The notes under the pieces were generated by a model, which saw only the letters and a list, made by a program, of their open reading frames with translations, had not been told where the DNA came from and ran no database searches. A DNA stretch of 61,895 nt. It comes from Carpediemonas membranifera BICM (lineage: Eukaryota > Protista > Fornicata). The stretch lies in the NCBI GenBank assembly GCA_019828565.1, contig JAHDYR010000012.1, forward strand, positions 1,810,946 to 1,872,840, given 5' to 3'. The position numbers were made by a program, and so were the translations under genes. Below are positions 1,382 through 48,748 of this stretch, piece by piece; positions within the stretch are counted from its first letter, which is position 1, and every line of letters begins with the position of its first letter.

Positions 1382-1469
1382 CTCTCTCCTCTGGCGCTGA
1401 TCGAACTCGTCGGGGATCAGCTCTGCGAGGAAACTTCACTCGGTGCGGGACAGAGTTTATCCACCAGAG

Positions 1470-1944
1470 ATGATTGCTTACATCAACGATGTGCGAAAGA
1501 GAGGAACATCAATCATGCATATGGTTCATAAGTGCCAAGAGATCTGGCATCAAGGCTATTGGAACAACATCGCCAAACATTTGCGAGAACACGGAGAGAA
1601 TAGCAAGGATACAAAGCGGAAGAGTGCTCCACAATACCGAGCTGATGAGGTACGAGAGTACCTGAAGAAGCTTCTGCCGCAGACCGACTTCTTTATCGAT
1701 AAACTAGTTGAGATGATCGCCACACAGTTTGGCAGGCGCTATACACGAGCTAGGGTCTGTCAACTCATCCGTGAAACAAACATCACGCAGAAGAAGGCCG
1801 ATACCCTTTGGGCCCTCGCCAGTCACGAGCAAATGCACCAGTTCATGGTGGTCTGCCATAGGATAACCTCTCTCGCTCCTCCGGAAGACGTGTATTGGAT
1901 GGACGAAACACATGTAGACCCTCGCAATACGTGGAGACGCCGAG
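1470..1944 (+). pseudogene. IS630/Tc1-mariner-type transposase, N-terminal part (HTH and first catalytic D), interrupted by a LINE
   Basis: Winged-HTH-like segment (FFIDKLVEMIATQFGRRYTRARVCQLIRETNITQKKA) then VYWMDETH. Frame breaks at the LINE tail at 1945 and resumes at 17619 (RNTWRRRGWSVRGER). Confidence 0.8.
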
Positions 1945-2928
1945 AAATAAATAAAATAAATTTAACGTATCCTGTACACCTGTGTAAATCAGGGAATTAC
2001 CAGTTTGCACCACCCCATGTCCCCGGGAACGCCTTAGCGTGTTGACTTCCCTTCGTGAGCGAGCCTGATACTACGTTGGGGGCGTTAGCACCATCACCGT
2101 CAGGGTCCAGCTGGTAAGGCTGGGTAGTCCCTTGCATGTTGACCTATCAACTGGCTGGCCCGATACCCCCAAAGTCGGGATAACCCAGGTCTTACTCTTG
2201 GGGGTCCTTCGGGCCCCCGTTCTGCCTGGCACCCGCAAGGCCTTGCCCTGCACACCCGCCACCGGGGCCTTCTGCTCGGTTTCCCCTACAGGGCTCCTCT
2301 CAGGGATATGTTCTCCATACCATTCGACCCAGTTTGCAATTTTTCAGGCACCCGCCGAAGCGGTTTCGGGCTTGGCGTTTGCCGTACCACGCAATTGGGC
2401 CAGTTATGAAACCCACCGATCATCGCTGGGTAGCTATATGATTCACGGCTGCGTTCGGGCTCTTCCACACTTTCCGTTCCGGCATGGATCCCCTCCTCAA
2501 GGATTTGTTCCCTATAGGGCTTCTTCCTAGCTTCCGGCTGGTTCCAAGTTTTGGGTGCCGGGCCGTTCGGCGCAGCTCTGATTTGGTCCAGGTGCCGCCC
2601 AGGTGGTATTATTGCCTTATGGTTACCCTCCTGTTTGGCTGCTGCGCCCCGATACCTCGCACGTACGTGTATACATGTGCATACGTGCCCCGCCCTATGG
2701 CTCTGGGTTATTTCTTATACGTGTGAAGAGTGTGCCGGTTCTGCCGGCTGAATGTTGTCTACGTTCCCAGTATGGGTGAGCGTTTGTGTGTTAGCGAGAT
2801 TAGTGTTCGGGGTTGAGTCCCCCTTCCGCGGCTGGGTGCTACCGGGATACGTGGGGCTTGCGTCCCCCGCTGATCCCAGGAGCGCTCCGCTTCGGTTGAG
2901 GCGGGGGGTTGGGTCCCAGTTTGACCCT

Positions 2929-3053
2929 TGTGGCAGTGTGCCAATCAAATATTTTATTTGATTGGCGATTCGATCCGCCATTCCGGTCGACACTGTTGTG
3001 TCGACTTCTCTTTGACTAAAGCACCAAGTTGTTTTTCCGTCCTCTCGAGCACA
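2929..3053 (+). repeat. 5' LTR of Gypsy-1
   Basis: Identical to 7261-7385; contains hairpins GCCAATCAAAT..ATTTGATTGGC and GTCGACAC..GTGTCGAC. Confidence 0.95.
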
Positions 3054-3071
3054 GTATTAATACTCTCCATC

Positions 3072-4500
3072 ATGGTGTTGCCTACTCCCATAGAGCAGCC
3101 CAGTATCCCCTTGGCCGGTCTTTCCGCCGACTCCTGGCGGGCCGCCAAACGCTCATTCAGAAAGTTCCAGGTATACTACCCCGAGGCCAAGATCTCCCTG
3201 TTTTTAGACGACGACCTCTACAACGCCCTCGAGCTCCAGTTCGATGCCGATCTGGACACGCTCACTGACGAAGAGGTGGGTCACCTCATCGAGCGTCTGA
3301 TCGCTCCAAGAGACCTACTCTCACTCAAGGAACGTCTCGATAAGATTGTCTGTGCCGTGGACGCAACGCACAAGAAGTCTAGAATCGTTCTAGTCCGAGA
3401 CTATATCCACCGCTTCAACGAGGTTTTTAACCTGCACACCGTACTACAACGTGATGACGACAACGACTCCGACTCCGAATCCGACAGCAGCTCCGACAGC
3501 GACTACGAAGAAGCAGCCATCGTCCCTGTAAGGCACGTCGACGGTGATGCCCCTGATGACGACGATCCCGATCCTCAATCCCCCTCAGGCTTTCTGAAAG
3601 ACTGTATGAGGATCTTCACCGACAACCTACGTCCGAAGCCCTTCAAGGAGGTCATGAAGTTCAAGAAGGCTGAACGCAAGCCCACCGCCATGGATGATCT
3701 CCAGCGCCTTGCCCTCCGCGTTGCCAAACGCGACGACAACGCCCGCGAGGAGGCTCTCCGCTACGGCTACTACGCCCAGAGCTCCACTCCAGCCAACAAT
3801 AACGGCAACACCGGGCCCTCGGGTGACAACACCCGGCAGCCGGCACGCCCCTGTCGCCACTGTCAGGGCAACCACTTCGACCGAGATTGCCCCTCTCGTC
3901 AGTCACGTGGTCCCCAGACACAGGTCAACTTCGCGAAAAGCCGCGGAGCCGACGCCCTTAAGGTGCCCGCCTCATGCGGCACGTCCCACTTCCAAGCCAT
4001 CATTGACACGGGCGCAGCAATCTCATGCACGAGTGATCGTTACGCAAAGATATGGCAGCTCCCCCGCACCAGCATCGACCCCGTGTCGGTCACTCTCGCC
4101 GACGGCAGCTCAATCACCGTCAATCAGGCCGTAGATGCGCCCATCCTCTTCACAGGCCTCGCCGGATTCCCTGTCGCTGTCTCCGTCCGTTTCATCATCC
4201 TCCCTGGCCGCCAGTGTCCTCTAATCGGGTGCGACACTCTCAGAGACCTCGGCGTTCTCACTTCAGACGGCCTATCGCTTGGGCTCACACACTCTACGCC
4301 AGCGGCTGACGACGTCGTCCTCCCAGTGTTCTCGGTGTCCGGATCAAGGCTACAGTCAGCCCTTGCAGACTACCGCTCGGGCTGGCAGTCAGTCCAAATA
4401 CCCTCGGACGAGCTCCGCTCTCGCGTCGTGCCACTTCTGCGAGAGTTCTCAGACATCTTCGAGCCGCTCGGTCCTGAACCGGCCAACGTTCCCCCATGGT
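3072..4500 (+). CDS. gag: Gypsy-1 Gag and aspartic protease
   Basis: CCHC knuckle CRHCQGNHFDRDC; protease motif AIIDTGA; LIGCDTL flap-end motif. Confidence 0.9.
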
Positions 4501-7032
4501 CTTGCACGTCAAGGACGATACCCTCGTGCAGATTAAGCCGCGCCGCCTCTCGCCTGATAACAGGAAGAAGACGAAGGAGATCGTAGCGGAGCTCGCCCAG
4601 AATGGCATCGTCACTCCCTCCAAAGGCCCTTTCGCCTCACCTATCGTCCTCGTCAAGCAGAAAGACAAGACACGCATGTGCGTCGACTACTCGGAGCTGA
4701 ACAAGCACCTCGTGGAGGATCACTTCCCGCTACCTAACATCAGAGAGTTTCTGATGTCCATGCGCGGCGCGAAGTGGTTCGCTGCTCTTGACCTCGTCAA
4801 GGGATATCACCAGCTTCCCCTCCACGAAGATTCACAAGCCCTCTCCGCCTTTGTCACGCCAGACGACTACCTAAAGTACACCCGCGTCCCGTTCGGCCTT
4901 GCCTCGGCGCCCTCGTACTTCCAGCGTACCATCCAGGCTGTCATAGCACCCGCCATTGCCACCGGCCGCTGCAAGGCGTACCTCGACGACATCCTCGAGG
5001 CCGCCCACTCAGATGACACGTTCATCGACGACCTGCGCACCATATTCATGGCCTTGCGGGAGCATAACCTCAAGCTCTCGCCCGCAAAATGCGTCATCGG
5101 CGCCTCCGAGGTCAGATCGGTCGGCTTTATCGTCGACCGAAATGGCATACATGTCGACCCCGACCGCATCCAGGCCATCGTCAGCCTCAGGCCCCCCGGG
5201 ACCAGTCTGAGTTGAAGTCAATCCTCGGAAAGATCAACTACATCGCACAGTTCCTGCCTGACGCCACCAAGTCACTCGCCACACTCAACCGGTCACTCAG
5301 AGCCGGCGAGTTCGTCTTCGGCGAGGAACAACTGACTGCTTTTGACGACATCAAGTCCCAGTTGGCGCTTCACATCAGCCTAACATACCCAGACCTCGAT
5401 AGACCCTGGCACATTTACACCGACGCTTCATCACTTGGCGAAGGAGGCGTGCTAATACAAGATGAGGAGGACGGTACTCGCTCAATTCTGGCCTGTTTCC
5501 AGAAGACCTACGACAAGACCATGTCGAATTGGTCAACATACGAACAAGAGTTGCATGCCGTGATCTCTGTCCTCACCAACAAGGTCTTCGAACCCCTCTT
5601 CCAGATCAAGTCTGACCTACATGTCCACACCGACCATAGCAACCTCGTCCAACTCAGACGGAAGGCCCCGACTGTCAAAAAGCTTCTCCGCTGGGCCCTA
5701 CGACTATCCGAGTTTCGCTTCACCATTCAGCACGTCCGTGGCGTCGACAACGTCATTGCAGACGTCCTCTCCCGGATCCTCCCCGACGCGCCTGTAGTCA
5801 ACGCTGTCGTCCAAGAGCCTCACTTCGACAAGTTCTCCGCCGTCCACAATGACGCGGTCGGACACTTCGGCGTCGACGAGTGCATTCGCCGTGTCAAAGC
5901 CGCCAAGACCACGTGGCCTGGCATGTACAAAGACATCAGACGCTGGATCAAGGCCTGCCCCCACTGCCAGCTGCATGCCCCTGCCAGAGAGTGCCCCATC
6001 GCGTATCACCCATCCTCCTCGGACGCTCCTTTCCACAGAGTTCAGGTCGACACTCTTGGGCCCCTACCCACCACGCCGTCGGGAAACTCCTACATCATCT
6101 CGATCGTGGACACCTTCTCCAGGTACATCAGACTGTTCCCAGCCACGTCCACTGACGCCCTCGCGGCCGCTCGCGCACTTTATGCTTACTGCGGTGCCTA
6201 CGGCGTACCTCGCGAGATCCAGTCCGACAACGGCTCGCAGTTCACAGCGAAGCTAATAGATGAGCTTACATGCGCACTCTCGTTGAATCACCGCTTTTCC
6301 GCCCCTTACAGCCCACAGTCCAACGGCATTGTGGAAAGGTACAACTTCGAGATCGAAAAGATCATCAAGCCCGCTACGATGCAACCCTGGGACGAACATC
6401 TGCCCTCTGTCGAGCTTATCCTCAATTCCAAGCAGGTTTCGTCCACCAAGGCCTCTCCTCTGGACATCCTCTTCCCATTCACCGAAGGGAAGGCCGATCC
6501 TTCGCGCCTAAAGGCCGCCCGCGAAGCCCTCGCTCGCTACGCCGCCAAGAAGGCTGCAATTCCCACCAATGTGCCCCCCACGCACGAGCCCGGCTCTCTC
6601 GTACTCCTCCTTCGCCCGAAGTCCGCCAAGATCGAGGCAAACTGGCGCGGTCCGTTCAGATATCTGCGCCGCGGTGACCACACGTCGTCGTCGATCATCC
6701 AACACATCACGACCGATAAGACCATGGAAGTTTCCGACCGCCGCATCAAGGCCTGGACTGGCTCCACGGACCTCGACGAGCTCAAGACCCTAGTCGCCGA
6801 GCAAGAGGGGGAGTACGCCGTAGACCACATCGTCTCGGCCCGTCGTCCAGCGAGATCGAAGACCATATACCTCCTAGTCCACTGGGCCGGGTGCGAGTCA
6901 GTAGAGGATTCGGAGGTCACGCTCAACGCTGAGACAGCCCAGATGGCCGCTCTCGACGACTTTCTCAACGTCAGCCCTTCATGGAGACAGCCAGTCGAGG
7001 CCGCCTGCCGCCGCAATGGCTGGCAACTCTAA
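4496..7032 (+). CDS. pol: Gypsy-1 Pol (RT, RNase H, integrase, chromodomain); frameshift near 5200
   Basis: RT motifs RMCVDY, LDLVKGYHQ, PFGL, YLDD; RNase H YTDAS and EQELHA; integrase HHCC, SDNG, NGIVER; WRGPF; chromo-like tail YAVDHIV..LLVHWAG. Confidence 0.92.
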
Positions 7033-7260
7033 GCTACTGTCAAGGCAGGACATTGGTTCAGCGTCCTGCCCAAACAAATAAACGATCCGTGCTAGTACAA
7101 GTTGTCTCTACTCTCCCACCCGTCAGAGCCTTGAGGGAAGGTGTGCCCGGCCAAGATGTCCGCCCGTGTCCTGCTGCAGGACCCGCTGTGCGCCTGTCGC
7201 CAGGCGGAAATGAGCTTTGACCGCTCTTGAAGGTCTCGGGCTCCGCCTCTGGGGAGGTAG

Positions 7261-7385
7261 TGTGGCAGTGTGCCAATCAAATATTTTATTTGATTGGCGA
7301 TTCGATCCGCCATTCCGGTCGACACTGTTGTGTCGACTTCTCTTTGACTAAAGCACCAAGTTGTTTTTCCGTCCTCTCGAGCACA
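7261..7385 (+). repeat. 3' LTR of Gypsy-1
   Basis: Identical to 2929-3053; preceded by PPT and followed by TSD CCCT. Confidence 0.95.
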
Positions 7386-7424
7386 CCCTGGTCCCAGAGG
7401 TCATAGGATTCTGGGATGGTGTAC

Positions 7425-10400
7425 TTACCCGTCTTTCCGGAGGTTCAGAAGGGCACGTCTGCCGTTCTGCAGTCCCTCTCTGACGGTATGGTCCTCGCTG
7501 CGGAGGAGCCAGAGCATTTCCAGGATTGCCCTTGAGTTGTACCACTCCGCCTCCTGCCCTTGCCTTAGGGCGTGGTACTGTGTGCGTAGATGCGCCTCCG
7601 CCAGGATGTCATTCCATCCTTCTGGGCGTTCTACCGCCTTGCATTGGCAGATGATGTGGCTTTGTGTTCCCAGGGGCTGGTTGTATGCCCATTCTGAGAG
7701 GATTTTGGTGGTTTCCGCCGCGGTTCTGGTGACAGTGTACAGGCGAGTAATGGTGTCACCTTCTGAGTCCAGGGTACATAGGGGGCAACACCGCTTGATC
7801 CTGCTCAGGAGGGCCTGGGGCTGGCCGATCGCGCTCCCAAGTATGGCTCTGCTTCTGCCACTGTTGCTGGGGGAGGGGAGTGTGTTGGATGCAGTCATGA
7901 TTACTCTCTTGACTTCCCGTCTGGTTATCATCTCACCCTTGATCATTCCTGGTTTCTTGGGTCTCTTCCCTTGCTGCATGCTGAGGATGACTTCCGGGGC
8001 TAGTACTGTTGCCACCCCTTTGGCCGTTCGGCTCCCCGGTGTGCAGTAGTTCTTCTGCTGTGAGGGTCCAGCCTCCCCTCTTTGCTCTTTTCCCTGGCGG
8101 GCATCTCCTCCTGTGTGCCCTGGAGGACGCTCCGTCGCCATTGGTAGAGGCGATGTAAGACCGATCCTCTCTCCGCTGTCGCCCAGTCCAGATTCCCTAG
8201 GGGGTCGGACGGTCCGGGTCGTGCGCAGACTCATAGAGCCTCACCGCTCTCTGCCCCATATCTGCCTCCCAGCACATCCATCCCATTAGTACACGGGCGG
8301 CTCCTCCTCCCCCTGGTCCTGTGCCTGCCATTAGGCCGCGCCAGTTGTTCCAGATGGCTCTTCCCCTGGCACTTGGCCCCCAGATCTCGATCCCGAACTC
8401 GATCTTGGGCCAGAGGAAGGTTCTGAGGATGGATTCCGAGGTGGCGGCCGGGGTGGATCCTTTGGTCCACCCTGCTCTCCTTGCCAGGGCTAGGTATTTC
8501 CGGGATTGTGACGTCTTCATTTTGATGCATGCTGCCAACGGATTCTTCCCGCTGGCTAGCCAGAGTCCCAGATACCTTGCTGAGTCTGACGCCAGTGTGG
8601 GAGTTCCTTGGATGCTGACCGCTGCAGTTACGTCGGTACTTATCACCACACTTTTGCCTGGGCTGGTCTGGAGTCCATGGGCTTCAATTACCCCTGACCA
8701 CTGCGTCTGTGCCTTCTTCGGCGAGCTGCGGGGTCTCGGATGAGATGCTTGTATCATCTACAAACATTGCAATGAGGCAGTTTTTGGGCCTATCGTCCGT
8801 TGGAGGGAGGCAGGGGTCCGGGATCTCTCTATGCCGGAGGTACAGTGCCGCCTGGCTTAGCCAGTTAGCTGTGAAGAGAATGAACAGAGTGGGGGCCACC
8901 ACACATCCTTGCTTGACCCCCATGTTTGTTCTGGACCATGTGCTTGCCCCTCGTACCGAGATGTACGTTTCTGTAAGTGTATTTCGGATGGCCCTCGTCA
9001 GTCTTGGGTGTACCCCCATGAGCGTCAACTTGTTCACCAGCAGGTCCCTTGGGACCGTATCATATGCTTTTGCTATGTCAAGTAGGACGCTGGTACGGTT
9101 TCCGGACTGGTGGAGTTGGGCTAGGAGGGCTATGTGATCCACTACAGTTTTCCCTTTCATGAACCCAACTTGCTCTCTGGGGATGAACTTCTCCACCGTC
9201 GGCCTGAGGCGCCATTTCAGTATCCTCCCGTAGGCTCTGTATAGGAGGGGGGTGAGGGAGATCGGTCTGTACGAGCTGGGCGTGAGCTTGTCCTTCCCAA
9301 CCTTGTGGATAGGCGACACCGCTGCATACTTCCATGTGGTTGGCATGGTCCCGCTGTCGTATACTTTCGCGAGCAGGACTGTGATTGCCTCGTACGCTGA
9401 TTCGGGGAGGTCCCTCAGACAATCTCCAATAATCCCGTCCGGGCCTCCGGCCGAGGACTTCCTTATGGACTTGACCGCCGCTGTCACTTCTTCAAGCGAT
9501 GGCGGATGGTCCTCCATGTCCGTTTCCGGCTCGGTTTCCCAGGTGGGTTCCCAGGTGGGTTCCTTCCCGGAGCTTACCTTCGCGTACTGCTCCTGGAGGG
9601 AGTCTGCAATCTCCCTCTGCCTTGCTAGAATCTTGTTTCCAGCCTTCAGCATCACCGGGAGACCGGCGTGCTGCTTCTCGTTCCAGAAGCGGAACACTTG
9701 GTTTGCGAGGATCCTTTTTGTCGTTTTGTACCCATCACGGGATCCAACCTCAACCTGCTCATTCCAGTCATGTTGGAAGGTCCTCCATGATCTGCTCAGT
9801 GCTCCGTTGAGGGACTTTTTGATATCTTTGGCGGCGGTTTTGCTCCAGGTGGAGGCTTTGGCCAGCCGTTCCCATACCTCACTAGGGATACGTTCCTGGT
9901 TTTCTACAGCGAATGGGTGCCTTCTGGAGGTAGCAAACCCGGTGGACAACCATTTCCTTATGAGAGTCTCCATCTCGTCCACTGGTATTTTGCTGTCTAG
10001 TGGTGGCCACTCTTCTAGCTTGGGCCCTGTTCTCCTGGGTTTGACCAGCCACGTATCGATCCGTGGGATTTCCAGTCTCTTTGATATCTCTGGTTTCCCT
10101 GTCGGGTTGCTATCCCAGGTGAGCTCTATGGCTTTTGTGTGCCGACCCCCAGTGCCCGATTGTGGTCTTGTCTATTACCCTAACAACCGGGTTTTGGATA
10201 CCCCCTGTTACCGCTGCATAGTCTATTGTGGACGTTCGGGAGTTAGTCCCGTACGTCGGTGCAGTTGGTGCTATTGGGGTGAGGTTCCATCGCTGGAGGG
10301 TCATCGCAGTTGCTTGCCTGAGTTTCCCTGGCCTCCTGTTCCAGTCCCCGATGATGATGATGTCACACCCCTCATAGTTCGCGACGGTTTGCTCTAGCAT

Positions 10401-10799
10401 CCGGTCGAACTCCTCAATCTCGGGTCGTGCACATCCACTATCGGGAGCGTAGATATTGATGACTGCCGTGGCCCTCGATGCTTTGAGGATGCTTACTTGG
10501 ATTCGTGGGTTCGTCCCGTCGGACACGCCTACGTCCCATTCCGCTTTGGAGTGCGGGCTAATCAGTGTGGCCAGTCCCTTTGTGGGTCGCTTGCGCGTTG
10601 CCTCTAATGGCTTGACCTCTCCTGCACAGGCGTACTGGAGATCTACCCAGCAAGGGATGGTGGTATTACCGTACCGCTTGGTTTCCTGGAGGAGGATCGC
10701 ATCAGTCCTTATCCTCTTGCGGATGGATAAAGCTATGGATCCGCTGTAATCGTTTGCGCCCGCTAGGTGCCCTTCGCTGTTTAGCGATATTATTCTCAT
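7425..10799 (-). CDS. LINE-A ORF2: AP endonuclease, reverse transcriptase and C-terminal CCHC (several frameshifts)
   Basis: APE motifs ISLN, LLQET, INIYAP, GDWN, PTY..STIDY; RT motifs YRPISL, LDIAKAYDTV, GVKQG, MFVDD, RYLG; CPLC..HIICQC. Confidence 0.92.
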
Positions 10800-11371
10800 T
10801 CAGGTTGTTCTGACATAAACTGCGGGAGTTACCCTGCGCGCACTAATCTGCTCTTTGTAGACATTCCCTTTTTGGGCGTACCTTTTGGTGGGTTGCTGAG
10901 GCCTCTAACCGAGCAGTCGTTTCCTTTTTGGGCAGGCTTGTGCCTGTATTCCCTTAGTTCCCGGCCTAGGGCATACCATTCCCTTTCACAGTCGGGGCCT
11001 CACGATGCTTGTCGGCATTGCTGCCGGTCTCCGCTTAGCTTCCTTCCTCGCCGCATGGCAGAACCATTACCTAACGAGCTTAGGTGGGAGCGACAGTGGT
11101 TGTTGCCCCTCCCAAGGCTGGAGTTACAGCCTGCCGGACAGGCAGGGCTCTTTTTACCTTTTGGTAACCCTGCCCCCGGCCCTGTGGGGCACAGGGGTTT
11201 GTTGAAAAAGAATGTGTTGCATTTTTGCTCCCGCCGGAATGGTTCGCCGGTGTCCATTTGGACTTTAAGGCCCTACTAGTCACAGCCTGGCCATACATGC
11301 TGGTTCATATATACACTTTTAGCTCAGACTTATATCACACTACCCTCTGCACCTCTTACTTATGATTGTTT

Positions 11372-14300
11372 CTACTCTCCTTCCTTCTCCTCGCCTCTCT
11401 TCCTTCTCAGGTCAGACCTGAAGTTATCCATCTTGGCTGCTAGGGTGAAGCTGAGGGCTTCGTTGGTTGCCGAGAGTCGGGCCGCGCGGCTGAGTAAGTC
11501 CTCGTTCTCTTCGGTTAGAGACGAGCACTTCTCCGTTGTCTTCCTGAGGTCCTTCCGCATCTCGTCCAACGCAGCTTGGGCTGCTCTCCGGGCTTCCCGT
11601 TCTTCCTCCAGCTCCTGGCTTTTGGCCTTGAGCTCGTTGATGGTTCTGGCTGCAGCTTCTTCCAGCTGTTGTCTGACCTCTGCTTCTCGCCGGGCCATGG
11701 CTTGGTCCAGCAGGGCCGCTATGCCTCTGCCCAGGTCGGTGTCCTCCTGTCGTGCTCTTTTGGGCTGCAGGTCCTCTTGGTCCACCTGTCTGACCTGGCG
11801 GGTCTTGGCTGATGGGTTGGGGGTATGGGGGGGGGCACAGCTCTTAGTTGGAGGGGGCCCGGGCTCTGTTCGCTCTGTCCTGCTACTTTGCGGTTGTTCA
11901 GTGACAATTTGCCCGCATGGAGGGCCATATAGGCCCCCTATGCCGCCATTCGGCAGGTAGACCTCCGTCCTCCTGTGGAGCATCTTGGCGAGTTCAGTAG
12001 CCCTTCGTCTCACCTTTGTTCGAAGCGCCTGCTTCCTCTCGGTCCTCAGTCTGTTCTTGGCGTTAGTGCTGGCGCCTTCCGGGAAAACACAGTTCAGCGT
12101 GTCCCATGGCTTCCCCCTTTTGGGTGTTCCACGCCTGAGCCCGCCAGGGCGAGTTTGCCTATCCAGGAGGCGCTCCTCAAGGTGCCCACTCGCCTCTTCC
12201 CTCTTTCTGCTGGTTCATCCGTGATACCCCCAGTCCCGGGGGAGGAACGAGGGGAGGAAGTTGATGGAGCCTGTCTCCGGGTCGACACACATGTTGGCCA
12301 GGAGTTCTCGATCGTCGGCTGGGACCTCCGTGAAGTAGTTGAAGATCTTCTTCCTGGCTTCTCTGCCCATGTGGCCTCCAGCTATGTCGAATTTGTGGAC
12401 GGGCATCAAAGACGCCGCTTGGGATAGGGTCATCGTTTTGGTGTCGCTGACGTCTAGAGTAAGCATCTTTTCCGCGTCTATTTCCGTGGGCTCCCCCTCA
12501 GGTTCGCCCAAGGGAAACCGTCTTGGACAGCGCGGCGGCGCCCGTTCCACTCCGAGTGGATTTCCAGGAGGATGGGTCGCGCTGGTTCACCTACTCTCGC
12601 GAGCGATTCTGGGTTTCCGATGATCACGGCTGTTCCTTCCAGGGCTCTGGTGATACCCTTTCCGGAGCTGAAATCGTTTTCCTCCCAGTTGGTCATGATA
12701 ATCTGGCCCCGTTTGGGGTTCTTGGTGCCAAAGAGGTTGACTTGTTGGGACAATGGGGTTAGGCGACCGGCCGCCACGGTGCCGAGGCCGTGTCTGGCGT
12801 TGACTTTGGTCGCCAGGTCCTTGTATTCATCATGGTACGGCGACTCCCTGCCCATGAGCATGCTTCCTAGGGCTGTGAGGTGGGCTTCTACCTGCCCCCA
12901 GTCCCAGCCTGGGTTGTCTCTCATCCAGAACGCTGTTGCTAGTCTGGCGTAGAATATGGAGACATCTGCTAGGGCGCAGTGGCAGTGGTGGGGTGCGTGC
13001 TTGTGATAGGGGCACACCAATTTTGCCTCCGGGCGCTGTTGGTACCTTCTGGTCCAGGTCCGGCCCAGTTCGGACTGGGGTCGGGAGGGGAGGCCGGTGA
13101 GGCTCTTCTCCCCACTATTGGGGTAGAACCAGGTCAGCGTGTCGAGGATGTTGGGGAAGATCGTGTTGAGGTCAGTTTCATCCATGAGGCGTAAGCTTAG
13201 CCAGGTGCGGAGGTTCCCGTCTGGGACGAACTTCTCACTGGTCAGGATGCTTCTCTCAGCCTCGACTCCCTTAGCCACGATGTGGACGTGGGTCTTCTGT
13301 GGCCCCGAGTCGTCTTCCAGTCTCTTCAGCTCTGTAGCCATCTCGGTGCACCATCGCTTGGCGTGGGGAAGTCTGCTTCGTATCCCTTGGGGGCTTTGCC
13401 CGTGGTGACGTCGACAAACGTAGCTGGTGGGCAGCCATGGATGTAGTGCGTGGCCCACAGACATTGGTCCAGGGCATCCACTGTGATGTCTTCCCCAAGC
13501 ATCCCGTGCATGTAGTAGAGGATTTGCTCGTTAGCTGGGTCGAAAATCAGTGCCGCCCCTTCGCAAATGATGGCCTCGTCTCCTTGGTTGGATCTGGCTC
13601 TTCCTTCCTCAAAAGTCCACCATAGCGATCAACTGCCTGGTGGTGTTGGCTCGTTGGGTGATATTGGAACGAGGCGGGCTAGCTCCCATGCTGGGCCCGC
13701 ATGTGCCCTTGTTTGGCGTGGTGGGTGTGTCATCAGGGCCGGAAGTCCTGCTGCCGCTCGGGCCCAGGGGGGTTTCTTCTTCGTTAGTACCCAGGGCTCC
13801 ATGAGATGCCCCGTCCCGTACGGGCTCTATAACTTGGGTCTGCCCCGTTGTGAGCCAGTAGTTAGTGATGTTGCGCGTCAGAAAGGAGGCAGACACCAGT
13901 TCGCGGGCAATCCTCGCGGGTGGGGGCCAGAGACGCCTGGTCTTATCCCATGCCGACCAGAGTTCGGGGAAGCCGGGGACTGACCACCGTTGGATGAGGT
14001 CTCTGACCTCCTCCCTCAGGTCTGCCTCTGCTGCCGAAGGCTCTTCTTCCAGGGGTGGGGGTGGGAAGACTGGCCTCATCACACCCTCGGTTCTGCTGTA
14101 GATGAGGATCTCCTCGACGGGGCCCTGGGTCCAGATCTGGATGGGCGTGCCGTCTGGTCTGCGGAAACCTCCCTCCGGGGGGTGAGGGGCGTGGTAGCCT
14201 TGCCCTTTGGCTAGTTCCCGGCCTAGGTCGGCCCAGAGCTTCTTGTTTTCGCGTCCTAGTGAGGGGGAGCCCTCTGGCTGCAGCTCCCGCGGAGATGGCG

Positions 14301-15221
14301 TGTCCGGCGGCATGGAGGAGCCACATTGCAGCCTCCATCCCGTACTTGGTCTGGATGCCGTTGCCTGAGATCGAAGAATGTCCTGCAGCTTGCAGCGATG
14401 TTGCCACGAGCTCTAGGAGGAGCGTCCTTGCGACCTTTCCCGTTCGGGCAGTGAAGTCCGTTGCGTCATCTCTGGTGAAGACCATGGCAACGTCCCTTGT
14501 GGGAATAGCCGCATCTGCTGAGGCTCTGATGCAGTCCCATTCGTCCGGTGTGGCCAGTTGCTTGCCCAGTGGCGTTAACGACTCCTTGATCCCATTTGGG
14601 GTGGTGTTTGCGCAATCCAAGGCGTCTGGGACGCTTTGGGAGCTGTTCGAGGTCATTGTGTGGCGTGGTCTCGAAAAGTCCCGGTTATGGATTCGGCCGA
14701 GATCAAGGCCCTCCTCCACGGGGAGAAGTGATGGGGTGTGTTGCTCACTAGCTGGTGCCGTCTGGCTCGTCCGGTGGGGATGTGCTACGTACTTGGAGTA
14801 GTCCGCCTGGACTCTGGGGTAGAACACAAATTTGGGGGACCCTGGGCGAAGCCGGCTTAGTGTCTCCGCCTGCTCTAGGTCCAGCCGGTTCCCTTCAATG
14901 AATAGCCAGTATGGCTGTTGGGCGGCTTTTGTGTACCGTCTCAGGAGGGGAAGTGATGCAAACAGCTTCTTGGCCCGGCTTTTCCGGAGCTCCCCTGGGC
15001 CTTCCTTTGCTGTAAAAGCTTCCCTGTTCTGGGTCTACAATCTTGTCGTATCCTATCGCGTTGCCGAGCTGGATAATGGACGTATTTGCTTTTTCCCTTC
15101 TGGTTTTCCTGAGATCCCTTCTGGGTGCAGCCTTAAGGGCGAATAAGCCATAAATCATGCTTTCTTCCCTATCTGGCATGTCCCTGTTGGGATATTCCCC
15201 TGTTTCCATTTGGAGTGGCAA
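11372..15221 (-). CDS. LINE-A ORF1 region: probably one long frameshifted ORF with a MAEL/NP-like nuclease domain and a C-terminal coiled coil
   Basis: Chain of abutting or overlapping minus-strand ORFs (15221-14895, 14827-13943, 14313-13609, 13511-13326, 13464-12478, 12550-12215, 12013-11372); the last is heptad-rich. Confidence 0.6.
12930..13635 (-). CDS. Maelstrom/arenavirus-nucleoprotein-like DEDDh Zn-binding nuclease domain within LINE-A ORF1
   Basis: Reconstructed across two frameshifts: IAMVDFE..ICEGAALI..ATHYIHGCP..IVAKGVEAERSIL..ILDTL..CPYH..HCALADVSIF. Motif order matches DxE, Zn-Glu, H, acidic, CxxH, HCALxD. Confidence 0.7.
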
Positions 15222-15400
15222 AAGGCGGGAAGTGCACTTTTGCCAGCTTCTTGGAGGGGCTTGAGGAGGTCTGGTGGAGGTTCCAAGGGGCGCCAGCCAG
15301 CGATGTCCTGGTCTTGTATGGCTCCTTTCCCTTCCTCAGGGCGGATGGTTCAGGGGCGAGGTATGCGAGGTTTGTTGCGGACCTTGTTTCCACACAAAAC

Positions 15401-16132
15401 ATGTCTGGCGAAAACCCAAAAGGGAACCTTATTGCAGGGACAGGGAGCATCGCCCCACACGGGGCTGCTGTCCCTTATTCCCCATGCGTCCGTTCCATCT
15501 CTCCTTCCACCTTCACGCCTCCTCCTGGCCATTCGGCCGGCGCCTCCGCTGCCCAGCGGTCCCCAGAGGGGGAGGTGCATTACCAGGGGTTATGCACTCC
15601 GATCCCTATCGAGTCCTTGGCCCGAGTACGGCCTGGACTCCGATTTCGGGGGCGCCGCCTCTTTCCCGGGAAGCAGGGCCCTCTTCGCACTCCGACGGGG
15701 GATCCCATATTCCCCTCCGGGCCCCAGGGTAGTCCCTTGCCTTGTGGCGGCAGGGGCTTCACCGCTCCTTCTCGGGAGTCCCCGACTCCTGGCCCGGCGA
15801 CTCCTCGGGGTTGGGAGGCGCATTTCCTGCGGACCATAGCTGACGATTTTGCCCAGGTGGACGTCCTGGCCAGCCGGTGGCGGGAGCGTGCCGCTGCCTT
15901 TTCCTACCTGGCTCAGAATTACCGTGACGAGGACCTGAGTCCCCACGAGTCTAAGTCGGCTCGGGGTTTCGACGCTGAGCTGAGGGGCCAAGTGCGGGTC
16001 TATAAGCGCCTTCGTGCTCGCATAGACGCCCGGCTGCACCAGCTGGTTGCCATTCACGCCCCTCGTCCTGTATCTTGTGGTCGCAGCCCGGTTGTTTCCT
16101 TCCTGGGTCGCGTCACTCCCAAGAGGTTGTGA
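15401..16132 (+). CDS. Antisense ORF in the 5' region of LINE-A (hypothetical)
   Basis: Open from 15215 (305 aa), first ATG at 15401; Pro-rich N-terminus and helical charged C-terminus. Confidence 0.35.
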   Translation: MSGENPKGNLIAGTGSIAPHGAAVPYSPCVRSISPSTFTPPPGHSAGASAAQRSPEGEVHYQGLCTPIPIESLARVRPGLRFRGRRLFPGKQGPLRTPTGDPIFPSGPQGSPLPCGGRGFTAPSRESPTPGPATPRGWEAHFLRTIADDFAQVDVLASRWRERAAAFSYLAQNYRDEDLSPHESKSARGFDAELRGQVRVYKRLRARIDARLHQLVAIHAPRPVSCGRSPVVSFLGRVTPKRL

Positions 16133-17127
16133 GTCCTGGTAAACACCGTGATGGTTTATGCCTTTTGGCTTCGGCTGGGCGTTTCTTGTGGGGCTGTGGA
16201 CGGGGCCCTCAGCGCTCCCGGTCTGTTGTCCGGTATGGCTGGTGTACTGGGGGCCTGTTGTGGTGGCCCTGTTGCCTATGCCGGCGGCGGGCGGCGATCC
16301 CGGCCCTCGTGGCGATGACGTCCACAAGCCCGGTCTTGGGCGGCATGAGAGCACGGGCGCCGGAGTAGTGTGGCCCAGTGGCCTCCCAGTGAGAGCCTAT
16401 TGGCCGCCGGTCCCGGTGCTCTCGGGTTAATTTGCCATATGGCCCCAGTTAAGTTGTCTGAGGCAATCGTGTCGCAGTGCCTCTGGGGCCTACTGCGGGT
16501 ACCGGTTACGGGTGGGGTTTCAATCATAAAGGTGGCGCAGTACGCTTGTTCGCGTTGATTTCCCTTGTGGGTTTGTGCGAGGAGCGTTTAGTTGCGTCTG
16601 GTCCCCTTGTGGGTCCCAGGAGCATGGGCGGTAGGTTTTGTTTGTTGTTAGAGTACTGTGTATTCTGTCAACGCTTTCCTACCGAGGCTAACTTATTCCC
16701 TTTTGGGTGGTTTTTGCCTCTGTGCATTTTTGGGCACACGAGGACGATCATCTGTTGCTCGACATAGCTTGGCGCACGGCGAGGTATACAGGGCAGGGGA
16801 GTGGGCTCCAGGTGAGGTGGTGCGCACCTCACCTGGAGCAGCCAGTTGTCCTCTGCCGGCCCGCTCTGGCGCTAACCTGCTTCGCAACGGGCGATCTCCT
16901 CCGGGGAGCAATTTGCTTCCCCAATGTGCCCTATGGCTAGTGGGTTAGGAGAATACTTCCCATTTCTGCTCTCGTACCCCAGAGCAGACGAACTCTTGGT
17001 CCTGAAATTACCATTTGGTGGATGCTGGCGCCGCGGGGCACCGTCGCTCGCTTCGAGCTCGAATAGCTTTCAATGAGATCCGATAAATCCCGATTGCCAG
17101 CTTTTGGCCTTTTTCCGGTTGGTTTCG

Positions 17128-17897
17128 TCAACTTCCCATACCGGACATTTCAACTGCCTTCTTCGCGACGTAGATCGCGTATCTATCGAAAATCGATAGA
17201 CGCACCTTAGACGGAGCATTCATAGCATCTTTCAAAGAGTTGATACTCATACGAAGTGTCTGAAGTGCAGTGGAATGCCTTATGAGCATTGGCGCATGCT
17301 CGAGGATCTGCGTCGCCGCCTTGATCTGGTGCTCTGTTAGAGCTCCTTTGCCAGTTAGTGAATAGCACGCACTCTGAAGGTTGAAGGGGATCGAGTTTGT
17401 GGCACATTTCACCTTTTCGTCAGACTGAAGCTCGAAATACTGTTTCCCAGCAGGGGACTGGGCCCATTCCTTCTCAACTGCCACAAAGGTGCGGGACTTC
17501 AGTGACTGAAGCGAGGACGAATAAATCCTTTCAGTCTGAAGTGAGTTAAGCGTGTAATACGCCATAAAAGCTTCCGCCGGTGAGGTATCGAGCTCTGTGG
17601 TCAGCATAGAGAAGTGTTGCAATACGTGGAGACGCCGAGGATGGTCTGTACGAGGGGAGAGATACTACAGCTGGAAACATACTGGATCGCACCCTTGGAG
17701 GTCTTGAAGGCTTCTCTGATCTCGAGATTGGGGAGCTTCGCCAGCTTCTCCACCACGGCTTGATCGATTGCATCCTCTGTTAGCTCCGGTGTCGCCAGGA
17801 GCAAGGCGTCGAGCTTTCTGGCTATCACAGCTGCGGATTCGTACCCAAATTTGCTCTTGAGGAATAGGATCTTGTGTCGGACGTGCAGTCTGTTCAT
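17128..17897 (-). pseudogene. Unknown gene X, split by a 64-bp piece of the transposase target DNA
   Basis: ORFs 17897-17601 and 17622-17128 join in frame as ..SKGAIQHFSMLTTELD.. when the transposase piece at ~17619-17682 is removed. Confidence 0.5.
17619..17682 (+). pseudogene. IS630/Tc1 transposase, middle fragment
   Basis: Encodes NTWRRRGWSVRGERYYSWKHT, the RxxGWSxRG motif that follows the first D; begins with the LINE TSD. Confidence 0.75.
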
Positions 17898-18061
17898 GAT
17901 GGCTTCAGCTGAAGCTACGCCCTCCTGGGCATCTTCGTAAATCTCCTGGAGGAAGTCCGCTTCCTTAGATCAAGAGAAAGATCAAGAACTGTGGCTTTTG
18001 CTGAACTGGTGGAACTGAATTTACTCCAAAAACCCGCAGTGGTAGAAATGGTCTAAACCCT

Positions 18062-18550
18062 ATACCTTAAACTGCGGTCACATCCACAGAACAATAATCG
18101 CCTTCATGAACAGAACAGGCGTCAAACAAGTTTACATCGGGGATGCAGGCGAGACCGTCGACGCAGGCATTTTTAACGCCTACCTCGATCGCTTTGACGA
18201 CTGGCACTGGTCTCTGACAGGCCTTCTTGATCATGCGGGAAGGCAAAGTCGGGTCCGGGGTCAGATACCAAGCAATCTTAAATTTCTTTCTTCTTTCTTT
18301 CTTTCTTTCCTTCTTGATCATGCACAATGCTCCAGTACACCGCTCGGGAAGCTCTGCAAAGTGTCGGGTGATCTGGCTCCCTCCATACGCCCCAATCCTG
18401 AACCCTTGTGAGAATTTCTTCTCATGGGTTAAGCGGGACATCGCTCACCAGCGCCGCCTTCCCGATCTGGGCATCCTCATCCGAACCTTTGCTCGCTGCC
18501 CCATCGCGCTTCCTACTGTCCTTTCCTGTGGCTACTGGTGGCTTCACTAA
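18062..18550 (+). pseudogene. IS630/Tc1 transposase, C-terminal DDE region, interrupted by a micro-retroposon
   Basis: TIIAFMNRTG..DAGIFNAYL..LIMHNAPVH (DNAxxH with D>H)..WLPPYAPILNPCENFFSWVKR. Confidence 0.8.
18237..18308 (+). mobile_element. Micro-retroposon (mini-SINE) copy A
   Basis: 72 bp; core CCGGGGTCAGATACCAAGCA; TAAATT plus (CTTT)n tail; 15-bp TSD CCTTCTTGATCATGC. Confidence 0.85.
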
Positions 18551-18648
18551 ACGTTTATTGGATCGATTCGTTATTGAAAGCAGTTACCAGACAGAAGAAC
18601 TCATCTTGTCTGGACCGCTTGATGAGAACACTGATCACAACTGTCTCA

Positions 18649-18709
18649 AAGAAAAGAATTAAATTTAGTTTGCTTGGTATCTGACCCCGGGCCCGACTAT
18701 TCCTCCCCA
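18649..18709 (-). mobile_element. Micro-retroposon copy B
   Basis: 61 bp; same core; 16-bp TSD GATCACAACTGTCTCA at 18633-18648 and 18710-18725. Confidence 0.85.
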
Positions 18710-21199
18710 GATCACAACTGTCTCAGTTGTGTCCTCCCTGGGCTGTCGTCTCATTGAGCGTCAGCTCCTGAGCTTTGAGAGGAGATCATGTCATTCTCAG
18801 CAGCAATCACCTCGTTCAGCTTCATCTCGCTGTACTTGTGGTGAGCTGCTTGTCTGCAAGCATCGCTGGCAGCCATTGCAAACGCGGCTACTTCTTCATG
18901 AAGCTGGATGTGAAAATCTAAATTCATGCTATTCCAAACAGCCTAATTTTATGCTATCGTCAGGCCAATTGCACTATTCGAAATTTAATGGGTAACAGGA
19001 AAGCTGACGTGTGGGCAGTCAGAGCAAGGGGGGATCATCCAAGTGGCGACTGGCAACTGCATAGTAGGTGTGCCAGGCTGAGAGAAGGTGGCAACTGCAA
19101 CAGACTTGACTGCATGGGTTCTAGGCAAAGTGGAAAGGTCGTTATTTGCAAAGCGGGGTGTGCGCAGAAGTAATGTTTGAGTCTCATCATCCGTTGAAAG
19201 CTTCCTAATGTCATTGAGGCCCTGGATTGTGAGTGCACTGATGACATCTGCAGACTGATCATATGGTTCACTGGTGCATGGGGGCATACACGACGTTAAC
19301 AACCATGCTGCACGCACGCAGCACACTGTCAGTAAACGCACCATATGCATCTACTATTCAGATCCAGAGCTCGGCCGGAGTCGCCTGCTCTGTCGCATCC
19401 AGACGAGGGTCGAGTTGGGTCGACCGAGCATCGAGGCGGGCGGAGGGCGCCGGACCGCGCGCTACCGGAATACGTGGAGTGAGTATCGCTCTGCTGATTC
19501 CAGGAGCGCGCTGTCCGCTCACATCCGATTTGTCATTTTGGGGGTCGCGCCACATCTCGACTCTGAAAGAACTGCGAGGGCAGGCCGGGAGGCCTTACAG
19601 CATAATCGGCCTGGGTCGGTCAGACTCTATGTCAACCCGGACTCCATCAGTCAACATGGCGCGTGAATGCATGCTTTGGAGCCCATTCCGAAGCTATATC
19701 GGCGATCAATTTGGTTGGTGACATGTTCATCTGCCCTTCGAAATCCTCTCGAGATTGCTAGTCCGAAGCTGAGCGATGCCGTTACCTCGACTACAACCAT
19801 CGAATCGCTGTCGCTCTGCCATAAAGCTTGTATAGCCCTCTAACATCTGGATCCGGGCCATTACCAGCGGGCGCACACTGGCAGTATGCGTTTGGAGTCG
19901 GCCCAAACTTCGATCTCGACCGACATCGAACATGGCGAATAGAGGTCGGAGAGGGCTGAAACTCACACCATTACACTGTACGAGAAGCTCATACAGGATG
20001 GCTGACCCATCTTAGTCTTTAAACTCCCAACCGTAATTTCTGGTGTCGCCGAAAATGACGACTCAGTTTGACTCGATCCACCCTCAGTCCGCACCCAGTG
20101 GCATCACCACAGCAAGAAGGCCTGGATAGAGTGCAATTGCCCCACCCGCAGCCTTGAACACAACGTCCACCAGACCACCGCCCTCGAGATGGCCGCGCAG
20201 AATACGCCATCATTTTTCTTAAGATCCTGGTTGACGCAAGCAAGGGCCTGGACACGAACTGGACCCCTGCATCGTTCACGTTTGATCATTATCTCACCTT
20301 GATTCAGGGCAACTTCAGAGTGAGGAGGAGCTTCAGGGCTGGTGGATCCGCTGGACCCCGTCCCAGACAGTCCCAGTAACCACCCAGTCGCCTGACCAGT
20401 GGGAGCCTTCTGGCTGACTCTGCCCAGTTCTTGGTCTGTAATATTTTTTCGCACATTCCTTCGCGAGCTCGAATAATCGTTCTCCAAGCACCTCTGCTGC
20501 TATATTTGTGTAGGATGCACATTTAAGACATATAGATCACGGTTCCTCGCTTTCGCTCTCTCAGTTTCGGTCACTTCTTCGTGCCGAACTAAACAACATC
20601 AATCAGGTGCTCCGACGGGACCCTGGAGCGGCAACAAGGTAAGTCCGCCACCATCAAATGATGTCAAAATCCTAGCTGTGCGCCACGGCGTCTTCGGACC
20701 CGTGGTATTGCATTGGCCTCTGGCCCTTGCTGCACACCGGGACATCCGCGCCACCTTACACGGCGCGGAACCCGGCTTCTAGCTAGGAGCGCGCGGGCGG
20801 TGTGTGACTGCGACAAGCTTGCCACAGGCCGCTGATTTGAGCTCGCAGGCGCTTCTGAACTCAGTCCAGAATCAGCGTTCAGCATGATTGTTTGTAGAGA
20901 GCTTTGCGGGTGAGTTCGTTCTGTAGCAGCTCGCCCTGTCTAGCGACTCCACAGCTCGCCGTGTTCGCGCTCCCTCTGCTGCGGGTGCTGCGCCCAGTGC
21001 GCGGGGGCGCGACCGCTTCCCAGTGTCCGTCGCTCGTTGACCTCGTGAAGCGCAGATATAATGTGCAGTCGCTGAAAGGGCGCCGTCGCTGTTCCTTCCG
21101 AGCCAGCCGAGGGCAGAGCTCCATGCCATGTGCCCTCGTACTCGACTGACGCTGTTGTTGTTATCGGCCAGCCCAACGAGCTGGAGCTGTAGTGTTCAG

Positions 21200-24770: not shown

Positions 24771-24922
24771 CGGAAAGAGGCCGTAATTCCGGCCAGCTGC
24801 TGAGGGACGGGGGGGTTTGGTCCCCAAACGGCGAGTGATGGCCGCGATGGCCTCCATCTGCAGCTGGATAGTCGATACTTTCGTTGAATTCATCATTTGG
24901 GCTGACACAATTATCAAGGCGA

Positions 24923-26199
24923 ATGGCCGAAGAAAAGATTGAGGCGCTTTCTGGCTGGGATTCAAGCCGTCCAAGGCGAAATATTGCAATGAAAGTCTCA
25001 TATGTCGGCGCTAAATACGGAGGCTTCAGCCTGCAACCGCACGACGACAATACTGTTGAATATCATCTATTTAAGGCTCTTCGGAGAACAAGACTCATGA
25101 ACATGGTAGAACTCAGTGGATACTGTCGTGCAGGCCGCACAGACCGCGGTGTCTCTGCCGTGGGCAACGTCATCTCGCTGTTTCTCCGCACAAACCAAGA
25201 CCCAGCCCGCGAGTTCGGCGGCAAGGCGCCCTCAGAAGACGACATGCCGAGCGTATCACCCAACGCCGTTCTTGACCAAGAGGAGGCCCGTGCTGCCGAC
25301 CACACTGTGGATGAGACTGAAGATGTCAAGGAGCTCGACAACGCCAACATGCTCAACAACGTCCTCCCCGCGGACATCAGGGTCAAGCAGTGGGCCCCGG
25401 TCCCCGTGACATTCAATGCCCGGTTCTGTGCGACGTGGCGGGAGTACCGGTACTACTTCCTGCCGGGTAACCTGGATCACGGGGAAATGGCTCAGGCCGC
25501 CAAGTACTTCGAGGGCTACCACGACTTCACTGCTTTCTGCAAGATGGACGTCACTCACGTCCACAACTTTTACCAAGGTGCTCGAGACTGAAATCATCAC
25601 CGCGCCGCAGCTCGGTTGACGGCCTAGCGTCGCAGCCAAAGGACGGCGCCGGCCTGACCCCCCAGTCGTCCCAGTCGTACTTCCGGGTGCGGGGCCACGC
25701 CTTCCTGTGGCACCAGGTGCGAGCCATGGCGGCGGTGCTCTTCACAGTCGGGCAGGGGCTCGAAGAGCCGGAGGTTGTTCAGCGCATGCTGGCAAGAGAC
25801 CCTGGGTTTGACAGAAAGCCGAACTATGCACTTGCTGACGACTTGCCACTCTGCCTGATGGACGTGGGGTTCGATAGCCCCGTGATGTGGCGTGCCTCTC
25901 CCGAATGCCAGTCCAAACTCAGAGCTCAGGTCCTAAAACTGCATAGCGACTTTGCCACCCAAGCTTCTGTGACAGCAGCGATCGTCGAGGATGTCACAGG
26001 TGAGCCAGTCCAGACCAAGCCATGGTTCCACCCAGCGCTGTTCCCGATGAAGAACGGCAAGCTGGTCTACGTGTCCGACGGCGATAAGAAGTACGTCCCC
26101 CTGTCCAAGCGGAAGGGGGAGCCGACGTACGGGGAGAGGATCAAGGCGCTCGAGGCGAGGAAGCGGAAGGCTGGGGAGATGGAGCAGGCGGAGGACTAG
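24923..26199 (+). CDS. PUS3: tRNA pseudouridine(38/39) synthase, TruA family (apparent frameshifts at ~25570-25620)
   Basis: KVSYVGAKYGGF, AGRTDRGVSA, LNNVLPADIRV, FNARF, HDFTAFCKMD, GHAFLWHQVRAM, KPNYALA. Confidence 0.9.
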
Positions 26200-26680: not shown

Positions 26681-26895
26681 ACCCACACGCCGAGTGGTAA
26701 GGTAATGATGATTTGTTTCTGAGTTGTCACCAATATCGTCGACTCTTTTCCCATCCAAGCCCAAATAGACTATACACGCGGTCTTGATCAGGGCGGAGCG
26801 CCAGGCATGTATCTGATAGATTCTCAAAATATGATCGTGATTGGAAGGTCAAGCTTGGTCAACGGCTTAGATCTTCATGCAACCAATACCATCCG

Positions 26896-42017: not shown

Positions 42018-42121
42018 TTTGTCCAGGCGAGACCCTTCACTAGGCAGGGTTTCGTCAAAGACCTCTTCGGCCTCAAGAATCTTAGATATGATTTGGTCCC
42101 GAATTTTAGATTCGGGGACCG

Positions 42122-43438: not shown

Positions 43439-44040
43439 CGCAATGACTAGTATTAATACTGTGAAGCGAACTGTTTATAGGTAAACCGTCTAAAGGTAAA
43501 AATGGTCTAAACTACCGTGACACATGACCTTGCCCGTTCCGGACCGACCGCCATTGGTCACCTTTCCCGCGTGGCCGGTGTGCTGTATGTGTGGGCCTGT
43601 CGGCAGCATGCCGCCCGTAACGCCGACACCGAGATTGTCGGTGCCTTTCTGAAGGCCTATCTCGAGTCCCGACGTGGGCTGCGTTGTCCGGATGGTTGGA
43701 GTGTTGAGCGCCAACTCAGACCGGACCTTTGGTTTGCCGTCCTGGCGGGCGGTAATCCCGATCTGTTCCGATTGGCCTTTGGCACCCTATGCCACGGTTC
43801 GAACCACCTCTCGTTCGCCAGAGCCGGCGGGGCGGGTGACAAGCTGAGACAGGCCAAAGCTCTCAATGTAGCGGCCGACACAGTCTACAGCAGCGGTTTC
43901 ATCCGTGGGCCGGATGATGGCCAAGTAAAGCTCGGTGCCCGCGCGCGGGGCGTAAGACACGAGCAGGCGGAGGACGTCACCATCGACACGGTGGCCCCAG
44001 ACGCGAAGAGGCTCATAAGCCCGACCCAGGACATCGGCTG

Positions 44041-48706: not shown

Positions 48707-48748
48707 ATCTTCACCACATCTAATCGCTCCAGCGTCAAGTCATCAGAT

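Follow-up and report, generated by a model that had tools for sequence, protein, structure and literature searches.

A LINE retrotransposon of Carpediemonas membranifera BICM, found in a stretch of 61,895 nucleotides that was analysed as a whole (the window), carries within its ORF1 a nuclease domain of the DEDDh class that is very probably a protist-type Maelstrom (MAEL) domain, as judged by the order and spacing of its motifs. The domain lies inside the element. In a related LINE it is encoded by ORF1, before the coiled coil, and its conservation extends over two distant lineages of LINEs. A MAEL domain placed before a coiled coil is a new ORF1 architecture, and a literature search (full text, mostly of non-subscription papers) found no description of a MAEL or DEDDh domain in any LINE, in agreement with the first-pass annotation, where this domain type was not recognised among LINE ORF1s. 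LINE-encoded counter-defence is barely known, and here a domain from a retroelement-silencing pathway is stably carried by a LINE family.

The element and its surroundings

The element is a young, target-site-duplicated LINE of the APE type, whose features are collected in Table 1. A perfect 21-bp target-site duplication brackets it as a whole and adjoins its 3' tail, and, apart from the nested gypsy element, a strand bias that the domain shares continues unbroken between about 2100 and 16800. The RT proper was located by Pfam search at 8684-10171 (-). Regarding base composition, sense-strand T amounts to 15-16% in the domain, the APE and the RT, compared to 19-20% in three host genes. The domain as a neighbouring host gene was ruled out by the duplication, the base composition and the related locus L003, described below. 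No Rfam match was obtained over 1900-18800.

Table 1. Features of the LINE and of its ORF1 domain in the window.
Feature	Position	Strand	Basis and remarks
Left target-site duplication, 21 bp	1924..1944	+	Exact repeat of 17619-17639; removal of the insert restores a Tc1/IS630-like transposase frame
3' UTR and TAAATT + (TTTA)n-like tail	1945..2928	-	Alignment to ~52500-53440, the 3' end of the second LINE copy; tails compared
Gypsy-type LTR element nested in the LINE 3' region	2929..7385	+	LTRs 125/125 identical; 4-bp target-site duplication
ORF2 reverse transcriptase and C-terminal part (fragmented)	7425..10171	-	PF00078, E 3e-27; colinear with the intact ORF2s P0005/P0006 in four frame segments
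ORF2 APE endonuclease	10110..10799	-	PF03372, E 9e-7
ORF1, inferred single ORF of ~1,280 codons	11372..15209	-	Now in about seven or more pieces; same order in the unbroken L003:3-3224
ORF1 coiled-coil end	11375..11740	-	Weak coiled-coil Pfam matches, all below cut-off; L003 and L001 have coiled-coil-like stretches in the corresponding position
MAEL-type DEDDh nuclease domain in ORF1	12930..13635	-	Motif positions and by-eye comparison with the MAEL alignment, PMC2628886 supplement S1
Catalytic set	D 13617-15, E 13610-08, E (replacing the exo II D) 13257-55, H 12981-79, D 12966-64	-	
MAEL set	E 13562-60, H 13508-06 (hand-counted), H 13439-37, C 13014-12, H 13005-03, C 12978-76	-	
5' region of the element	15210..17000	-	Same strand bias; no Pfam match
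Segment inside the duplications, 162-codon open frame	17128..17618	-	Different composition, T 25% vs 15-16% in the LINE ORFs
Right target-site duplication, 21 bp	17619..17639	+	Exact repeat of 1924-1944

The segment next to the right duplication (17128-17618) matched nothing in the window or in the relative loci; it is likely a 5' transduction or the result of a template switch, and the 5' end of the LINE may be chimeric. As this segment lies inside the duplication and differs in composition, the duplication alone is insufficient against a one-off capture of the domain. A second unexplained open frame lies on the other side of the right duplication (17690-17969, -). In the 5' region, an antisense frame of 331 codons was seen at 15137-16132 (+), its last 100 residues looking helical and protein-like and the frame having no Pfam match; antisense transcription over this frame could yield dsRNA. 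Between ORF1 and ORF2, there is a short Cys/His-rich frame (11000-11272, -), possibly a zinc finger, and L001 is Cys-rich at a similar place.

The insertion site is itself complex. The Tc1/IS630-like transposase (1401-1944 and 17640-18550) is interrupted not only by the LINE but also by an LTR-like fragment (~17690-18080) and, near 18237-18304, a short insert with a tail, so that the locus at 1401-18550 is a nest of at least four insertions. Short related elements at 18237-18304, 18661-18708 and 57462-57513 end in AAATT and T-rich tails like those of the LINE, one of them being clearly flanked by a duplication, and are candidates for a SINE or short element mobilised by the LINE family. A second LINE, 5'-truncated, lies at 52500-55591 (-) and represents a sister family with about 72% amino-acid identity in the RT. 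Two more young gypsy-type elements are present, at 39170-43523 (LTR stretches 63/64 identical) and at 44640-50680 (112/112), the latter bearing extra frames near 48749-49630. An intact glycoside-hydrolase gene is found at 26788-28224 (+), which we presume to resemble a secreted beta-amylase.

Reading frames and their breaks

The motifs, which the first-pass annotation had placed at 12930..13635 after two frame corrections, were all found there on the minus strand, spread over three frames, as seen by frame translations: the frame at 13609-14412 (-) closes with LIAMVDF, EEG..IICEGAALIFDP..WATHYIHGCP is read in the frame at 13326-13628 (-), and IVAKGVEAERSIL..VCPYHKHAPHHCHCALADVSIF in the frame at 12478-13530 (-). 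The first break lies in a run of four T on the sense strand (13611-13614), where an extra T had been proposed, and the second, expected near 13340-13370, lies in a run of four C near 13367-13371.

Scanning all six frames of the window gave one occurrence of a strict form of the C-terminal pattern, which was absent from 100 shuffles, and two occurrences of a loose form (shuffled mean 0.49). With the query P0001, a single match was obtained among 1,835,955,588 representative proteins (E 8e-10), namely P0004 (KAG9392497.1), a Carpediemonas membranifera protein that its source labels hypothetical. This protein aligns in a single frame to both broken pieces of the window (25/71 and 45/135 identical), as do the loci L002 and L003, also in a single frame (44% and 35%). 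Because these unbroken relatives span both pieces, the read-through across the two frameshifts is genuine. A chance occurrence of the motifs was ruled out by the P0004 match, the L002/L003 alignment and the shuffle counts.

ORF2, the gypsy element whose LTRs are identical and a host gene for tRNA pseudouridine synthase contain breaks too; single-base runs hold or adjoin those of the host gene and the gypsy element, plus most of the inspected ones in ORF1 and ORF2. In the synthase gene (24872-26199, +), the Pfam domain is split over two frames at a T run, which marks an assembly indel error. Indels in single-base runs are the typical pattern of long-read error. The breaks of the window are thus probably assembly errors rather than biological, because they lie in single-base runs, as in the host gene.

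Once joined, ORF1 has the order N-terminal region, MAEL domain, linker, Pro-rich stretch and coiled coil, its start ATG and two most 5' joins having been set without a homologue. The TGA met in frame at 12215-12217 has probably arisen as an artefact of a frameshift, although it may alternatively be read through. A short motif just before 12215 is common to the window, L003 and P0004, and suggests that the window ORF1 continues past this point into the coiled coil. The single ORF of L003 and the motif shared across 12215 speak against a short ORF1 preceded by an additional, separate ORF. The location within a LINE ORF1, as originally proposed, is therefore direct in L003, where the domain shares its ORF with the coiled coil before the APE-RT ORF2, and is indicated in the window through the shared downstream motif.

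Fold and family of the domain

No Maelstrom match was obtained in sequence or profile searches of Pfam or the PDB at E values up to 1-10 (the HMMER filters drop weak matches) or of NCBIfam, the PDB sequence and profile searches returned chance matches only, and the regions preceding the domain gave no Pfam match, the N-terminal nucleocapsid core of arenavirus NP included. Regarding structure, the Atlas model of P0004, of low confidence, matched DEDD-type clusters with TM 0.53-0.61 over 165-182 residues, none above the naming bar, and no Maelstrom cluster was among the Atlas matches listed for it. For the L003 domain, AF2 gave a model (pLDDT 45, pTM 0.47, with the C-terminal half below pLDDT 50) that has the RNase H-like order beta1-3/alpha/beta4/alpha/beta5/alpha. 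In a fold search with this model, ERI1/ERI2 occupied the top three places (Z 6.2-6.3, rmsd 4.8-5.4, 159-164 residues aligned), and BmMael came at rank 28 (Z 5.1, rmsd 6.5, 166 aligned, given the low confidence of the model); Z 5 was reached by 32 of 48,161 chains and Z 8 by 0 of 48,161. Foldseek gave no match at E <=0.001 in PDB or BFVD, its weak rows being RNase H-fold proteins, and no arenavirus NP chain was among the structural matches listed for the L003 model. Single-sequence AF2 of the P0004 domain reached pLDDT 32, and its fold search returned noise.

The models thus support a generic DEDDh/RNase H-like fold class. The first-pass annotation had named the lack of any DEDD or RNase H-fold match as evidence against its reading and had proposed a structural comparison with Maelstrom and Lassa NP; such a fold was matched by both the Atlas model of P0004 and the AF2 model of L003, each of low confidence, and the comparison upheld the fold class while singling out neither MAEL nor NP. 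The DEDDh class includes DNA exonucleases, and TREX1, RNase T and polymerase proofreading domains are among the fold matches, as would fit a 3'-5' exonuclease that trims flaps or mismatched 3' ends in target-primed reverse transcription. Such a DNA-side role is nevertheless very improbable, as the domain sits in ORF1 and not in ORF2, and the characterised MAEL-type enzymes of PMC4408791, PMC3429428 and PMC3359990 act on RNA.

Since the computed models support the fold class only, membership in MAEL rests on the motifs. Both the window and L003 keep D-x-E, the exo II glutamate and H-x4-D (D333, E335, E448, H527 and D532 in L003 ORF1 numbering), and the window has the D, E, E, H and D expected from the earlier claim that DxE, H and the terminal D are kept with E at the middle acidic position. 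From the first D to exo II, there are 115-119 residues in these proteins. Besides these motifs, the six EHHCHC residues defined for MAEL in PMC2628886 are in place. A comparison by eye with supplement S1 of that paper shows Entamoeba MAEL to be spaced alike, with 18 from zinc E to first H, 12 from C to C and 4 from C to D, and to end in the same pattern, C-x-Y-H-x7-H-C-[AG]-L-x-D; the trypanosomatid motif K-G-x3-D is K-G-x3-E here. Judged by motif, the closest kin appear to be Entamoeba MAEL and trypanosome RIF4 rather than arenavirus NP. Of the Maelstrom/arenavirus-NP-like nuclease first proposed, the MAEL part is upheld by motif (EHHCHC and D-E-E-H-D), and NP does not appear to be the closest kin, as its spacing differs.

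That the domain is a DEDDh nuclease unrelated to MAEL whose zinc site arose convergently, or a passenger without a role, is the least credible of the readings. It would agree with the missing Pfam Maelstrom match and with RNase T/ERI/Rv2179c-like families topping the Atlas and fold searches, but eleven signature positions in MAEL order and at matching spacing and a conservation near that of the RT speak against it. The MAEL domain is probably catalytically competent and is predicted, from its sequence, to be a 3'-5' RNA exonuclease.

Relatives and conservation

The RT search returned two proteins at 43% identity. The locus search returned 16 loci, with L001-L004 being close and the other 12 being distant RTs; an RT tree of 16 rows, built without reference clades, gave no resolution, its nearest rows being L001, L002 and L004. 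The MAEL motif is present in 2 of the 16 loci, L002 and L003, while L001 is cut inside ORF1 and L004 begins within the RT, so that neither is informative on the link between domain and LINE. L002 and L003, which come from a different assembly than the window, do not differ in their first 7,499 bases, diverge after that and are one sequence at two insertion sites. Their ORF1, open over at least 1,074 aa, encodes the intact domain, followed by a Pro-rich stretch and by a region resembling a coiled coil, and lies directly upstream of a 1,160-aa APE-RT ORF2. The link is thus seen in two LINE lineages only, since L002 equals L003 over it.

Between the window and L003, identity is 76/190 (40%) in the domain, 116/263 (44%) in the RT and 68/214 (32%) in the APE, while the ORF1 flanks have no detectable similarity (a score as high was reached by 118/200 and 50/200 shuffles). 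All five catalytic and six EHHCHC positions are kept in both lineages. The domain travels with the LINE family, because it is about as conserved as the RT. A one-off capture, with the domain absent from other full-length copies, had been considered from the beginning as the outcome that would speak against the proposal; it was ruled out by the intact domain of the related LINE L002/L003 in another assembly.

P0004, whose N-terminal flank is weakly similar to L003 (2/200 shuffles) and to the window (10/200), is presumably a LINE ORF1 as well. It has Y in place of the first catalytic D and S in place of the second signature H, thus keeping 5/6 of EHHCHC, and is possibly an inactive, pseudonuclease version paralleling metazoan Maelstrom; these two losses mean that catalysis is dispensable in at least one relative. 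The loss of the first D also favours the domain being an RNA-binding or chaperone unit of ORF1p, replacing RRM or zinc knuckles, as metazoan MAEL does, with catalysis being incidental. Pfam found no RRM or other known ORF1 RNA-binding domain in the ORF1 of the window or of L003, and BmMael is an inactive ssRNA binder according to PMC4408791, both in line with this role. However, all five catalytic positions were kept in two lineages despite ORF1 flanks diverged beyond detection, which makes the binding role rather improbable.

Beyond these relatives, the word-based search with P0001 against longer proteins gave 0 matches among 4,902 candidates, that with the P0004 domain found only itself among 2,716, and the L003 ORF1 frame, as given, was absent from the protein collection searched. 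P0001 matched none of 19 candidate stretches in metagenome contigs, and the RT alignment none of 74 in viral contigs.

Possible function

It is predicted, by analogy, that the ORF1 MAEL domain may blunt host RNA silencing of the LINE, an anti-silencing role that ranks first among the readings and to which we give slightly less than an even chance. The RNA of a LINE is covered by numerous copies of the ORF1 protein that it encodes. Such coating would bring many tethered nuclease domains onto the LINE transcript, where, ahead of Argonaute loading, they could degrade sense/antisense or siRNA duplexes, starting at the 3' ends; alternatively, the domain could compete with the host's own MAEL/RIF4. 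Because arenavirus NP destroys dsRNA with the same fold, it serves as the functional model. In addition, the dsRNA preference of RIF4, the exoribonuclease activity of EhMael and the precedent of a silencing suppressor domain, the SF1 helicase of LINEs, count for the anti-silencing reading, while the fact that host MAEL/RIF4 promotes silencing rather than blocking it and the loss of the catalytic D in P0004 count against it. Some diplomonads have neither Dicer nor Argonaute (PMC11437800), and in a host of this kind the target of an anti-silencing domain would be gone.

A role independent of silencing, the main rival reading, is unlikely, though not negligible: an active MAEL exonuclease would trim the LINE's own transcript, for instance read-through RNA down to the TAAATT-microsatellite tail, giving the priming end for ORF2p, and the family indeed ends in short T-rich microsatellites and not in poly(A). 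To our knowledge, most LINEs do without such a trimming enzyme; moreover, short elements with the same tails were mobilised in the window without the domain in cis, although it could be supplied in trans. EhMael is an active exoribonuclease that degrades ssRNA (PMC4408791) and 3'-end processing was proposed for the DEDDy ORFs of rotifer retroelements (PMC5408684), both of which, together with the existence of diplomonads lacking Dicer and Argonaute (PMC11437800), favour RNA processing.

Returning to the anti-silencing role, one tentative scenario, plausible but somewhat short of even odds, is that a LINE of anaerobic protists captured a host MAEL/RIF4 into its ORF1p, where it would now be an RNA-borne suppressor destroying siRNA duplexes. 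If true, the domain would be to retrotransposons what the NP exonuclease is to arenaviruses, and MAEL may have reached viruses by way of such LINEs; if the hosts lack Argonaute, an ancestral, silencing-independent job of MAEL would be indicated instead. As L003 is an intact, expressible sequence, retrotransposon-encoded suppression of RNA silencing becomes directly testable.

Comparison with known systems

EhMael of Entamoeba histolytica (EHI_192630) shares the DxE start, the EHHCHC set, the C-terminal pattern and the spacing (PMC4408791, PMC2628886) and has, like the LINE domain, both the catalytic and the zinc sets. It differs in being a cellular gene, not reported on a retrotransposon, and in bearing D at exo II instead of E; no sequence similarity between the two was detectable in the searches run.

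RIF4 of Trypanosoma brucei (D294, E296, D392, H472, D477) has the DEDDh set and the same H to D spacing of 5 (PMC3359990), and the K-G-x3-acidic motif of exo II is alike in trypanosomatid MAEL rows and the LINE domain. Meanwhile, the distance from the first D to exo II is 98 in RIF4 and 115-119 here, and the insert between its zinc cysteines is longer. In its 3'-5' exonuclease activity, RIF4 favours dsRNA, of which either strand can be digested in vitro (PMC3359990). Unlike the LINE-borne domain, it is a host RNAi factor maturing siRNA duplexes against retroposons, and RNAi against retroposon- and repeat-derived transcripts requires it (PMC3359990).

Metazoan Maelstrom has an ECHC zinc site of the same spacing, in BmMael D122/E137 and C290/H293/C302/R306 with spacings of 15, 12 and 4 (PMC4408791). 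It differs in lacking the catalytic set and in having an HMG box, and its structures (BmMael 5af0; 9nhc chain F) matched weakly (Z 5.0-5.1). In Lassa NP, the zinc-site cysteines are about 23 residues apart, compared to 12 in the LINE domain. This nucleoprotein (D389, E391, D466, H528, D533) combines DEDDh and ECHC on a selfish element in a like motif order, and its exonuclease digests dsRNA, but it belongs to a viral nucleocapsid and has 77 residues from the first D to exo II, against 115-119 (PMC3429428).

Other mobile elements carry comparable additions. The DEDDy ORF3 of the bdelloid Juno/Vesta LTR elements and of Terminons is a retroelement-borne 3'-5' exonuclease with a DEED variant (PMC5408684, PMC6431247), differing in its RNase D type, its separate ORF and its place in LTR and Penelope-like elements, not in a LINE ORF1. 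A viral SF1 helicase is fused to insect LINE proteins as an accessory enzyme, in Jockey ORF1 and TRAS ORF2 (PMC5563155), and weak silencing suppression was reported for it (PMC5563155, PMC6338049); it differs in its viral origin and in not being a nuclease of a host silencing pathway. Genes labelled 'MAEL' in adintoviruses/Polintons represent a MAEL-like gene on a mobile element (PMC8502044 Suppl. Fig. S2), here a DNA virus or transposon with a stand-alone gene, known from a map label only (0 mentions in the main text). The LINE is then the third kind of selfish element with a MAEL-type domain, after arenaviruses and adintoviruses, which bears on the origin of the arenavirus exonuclease.
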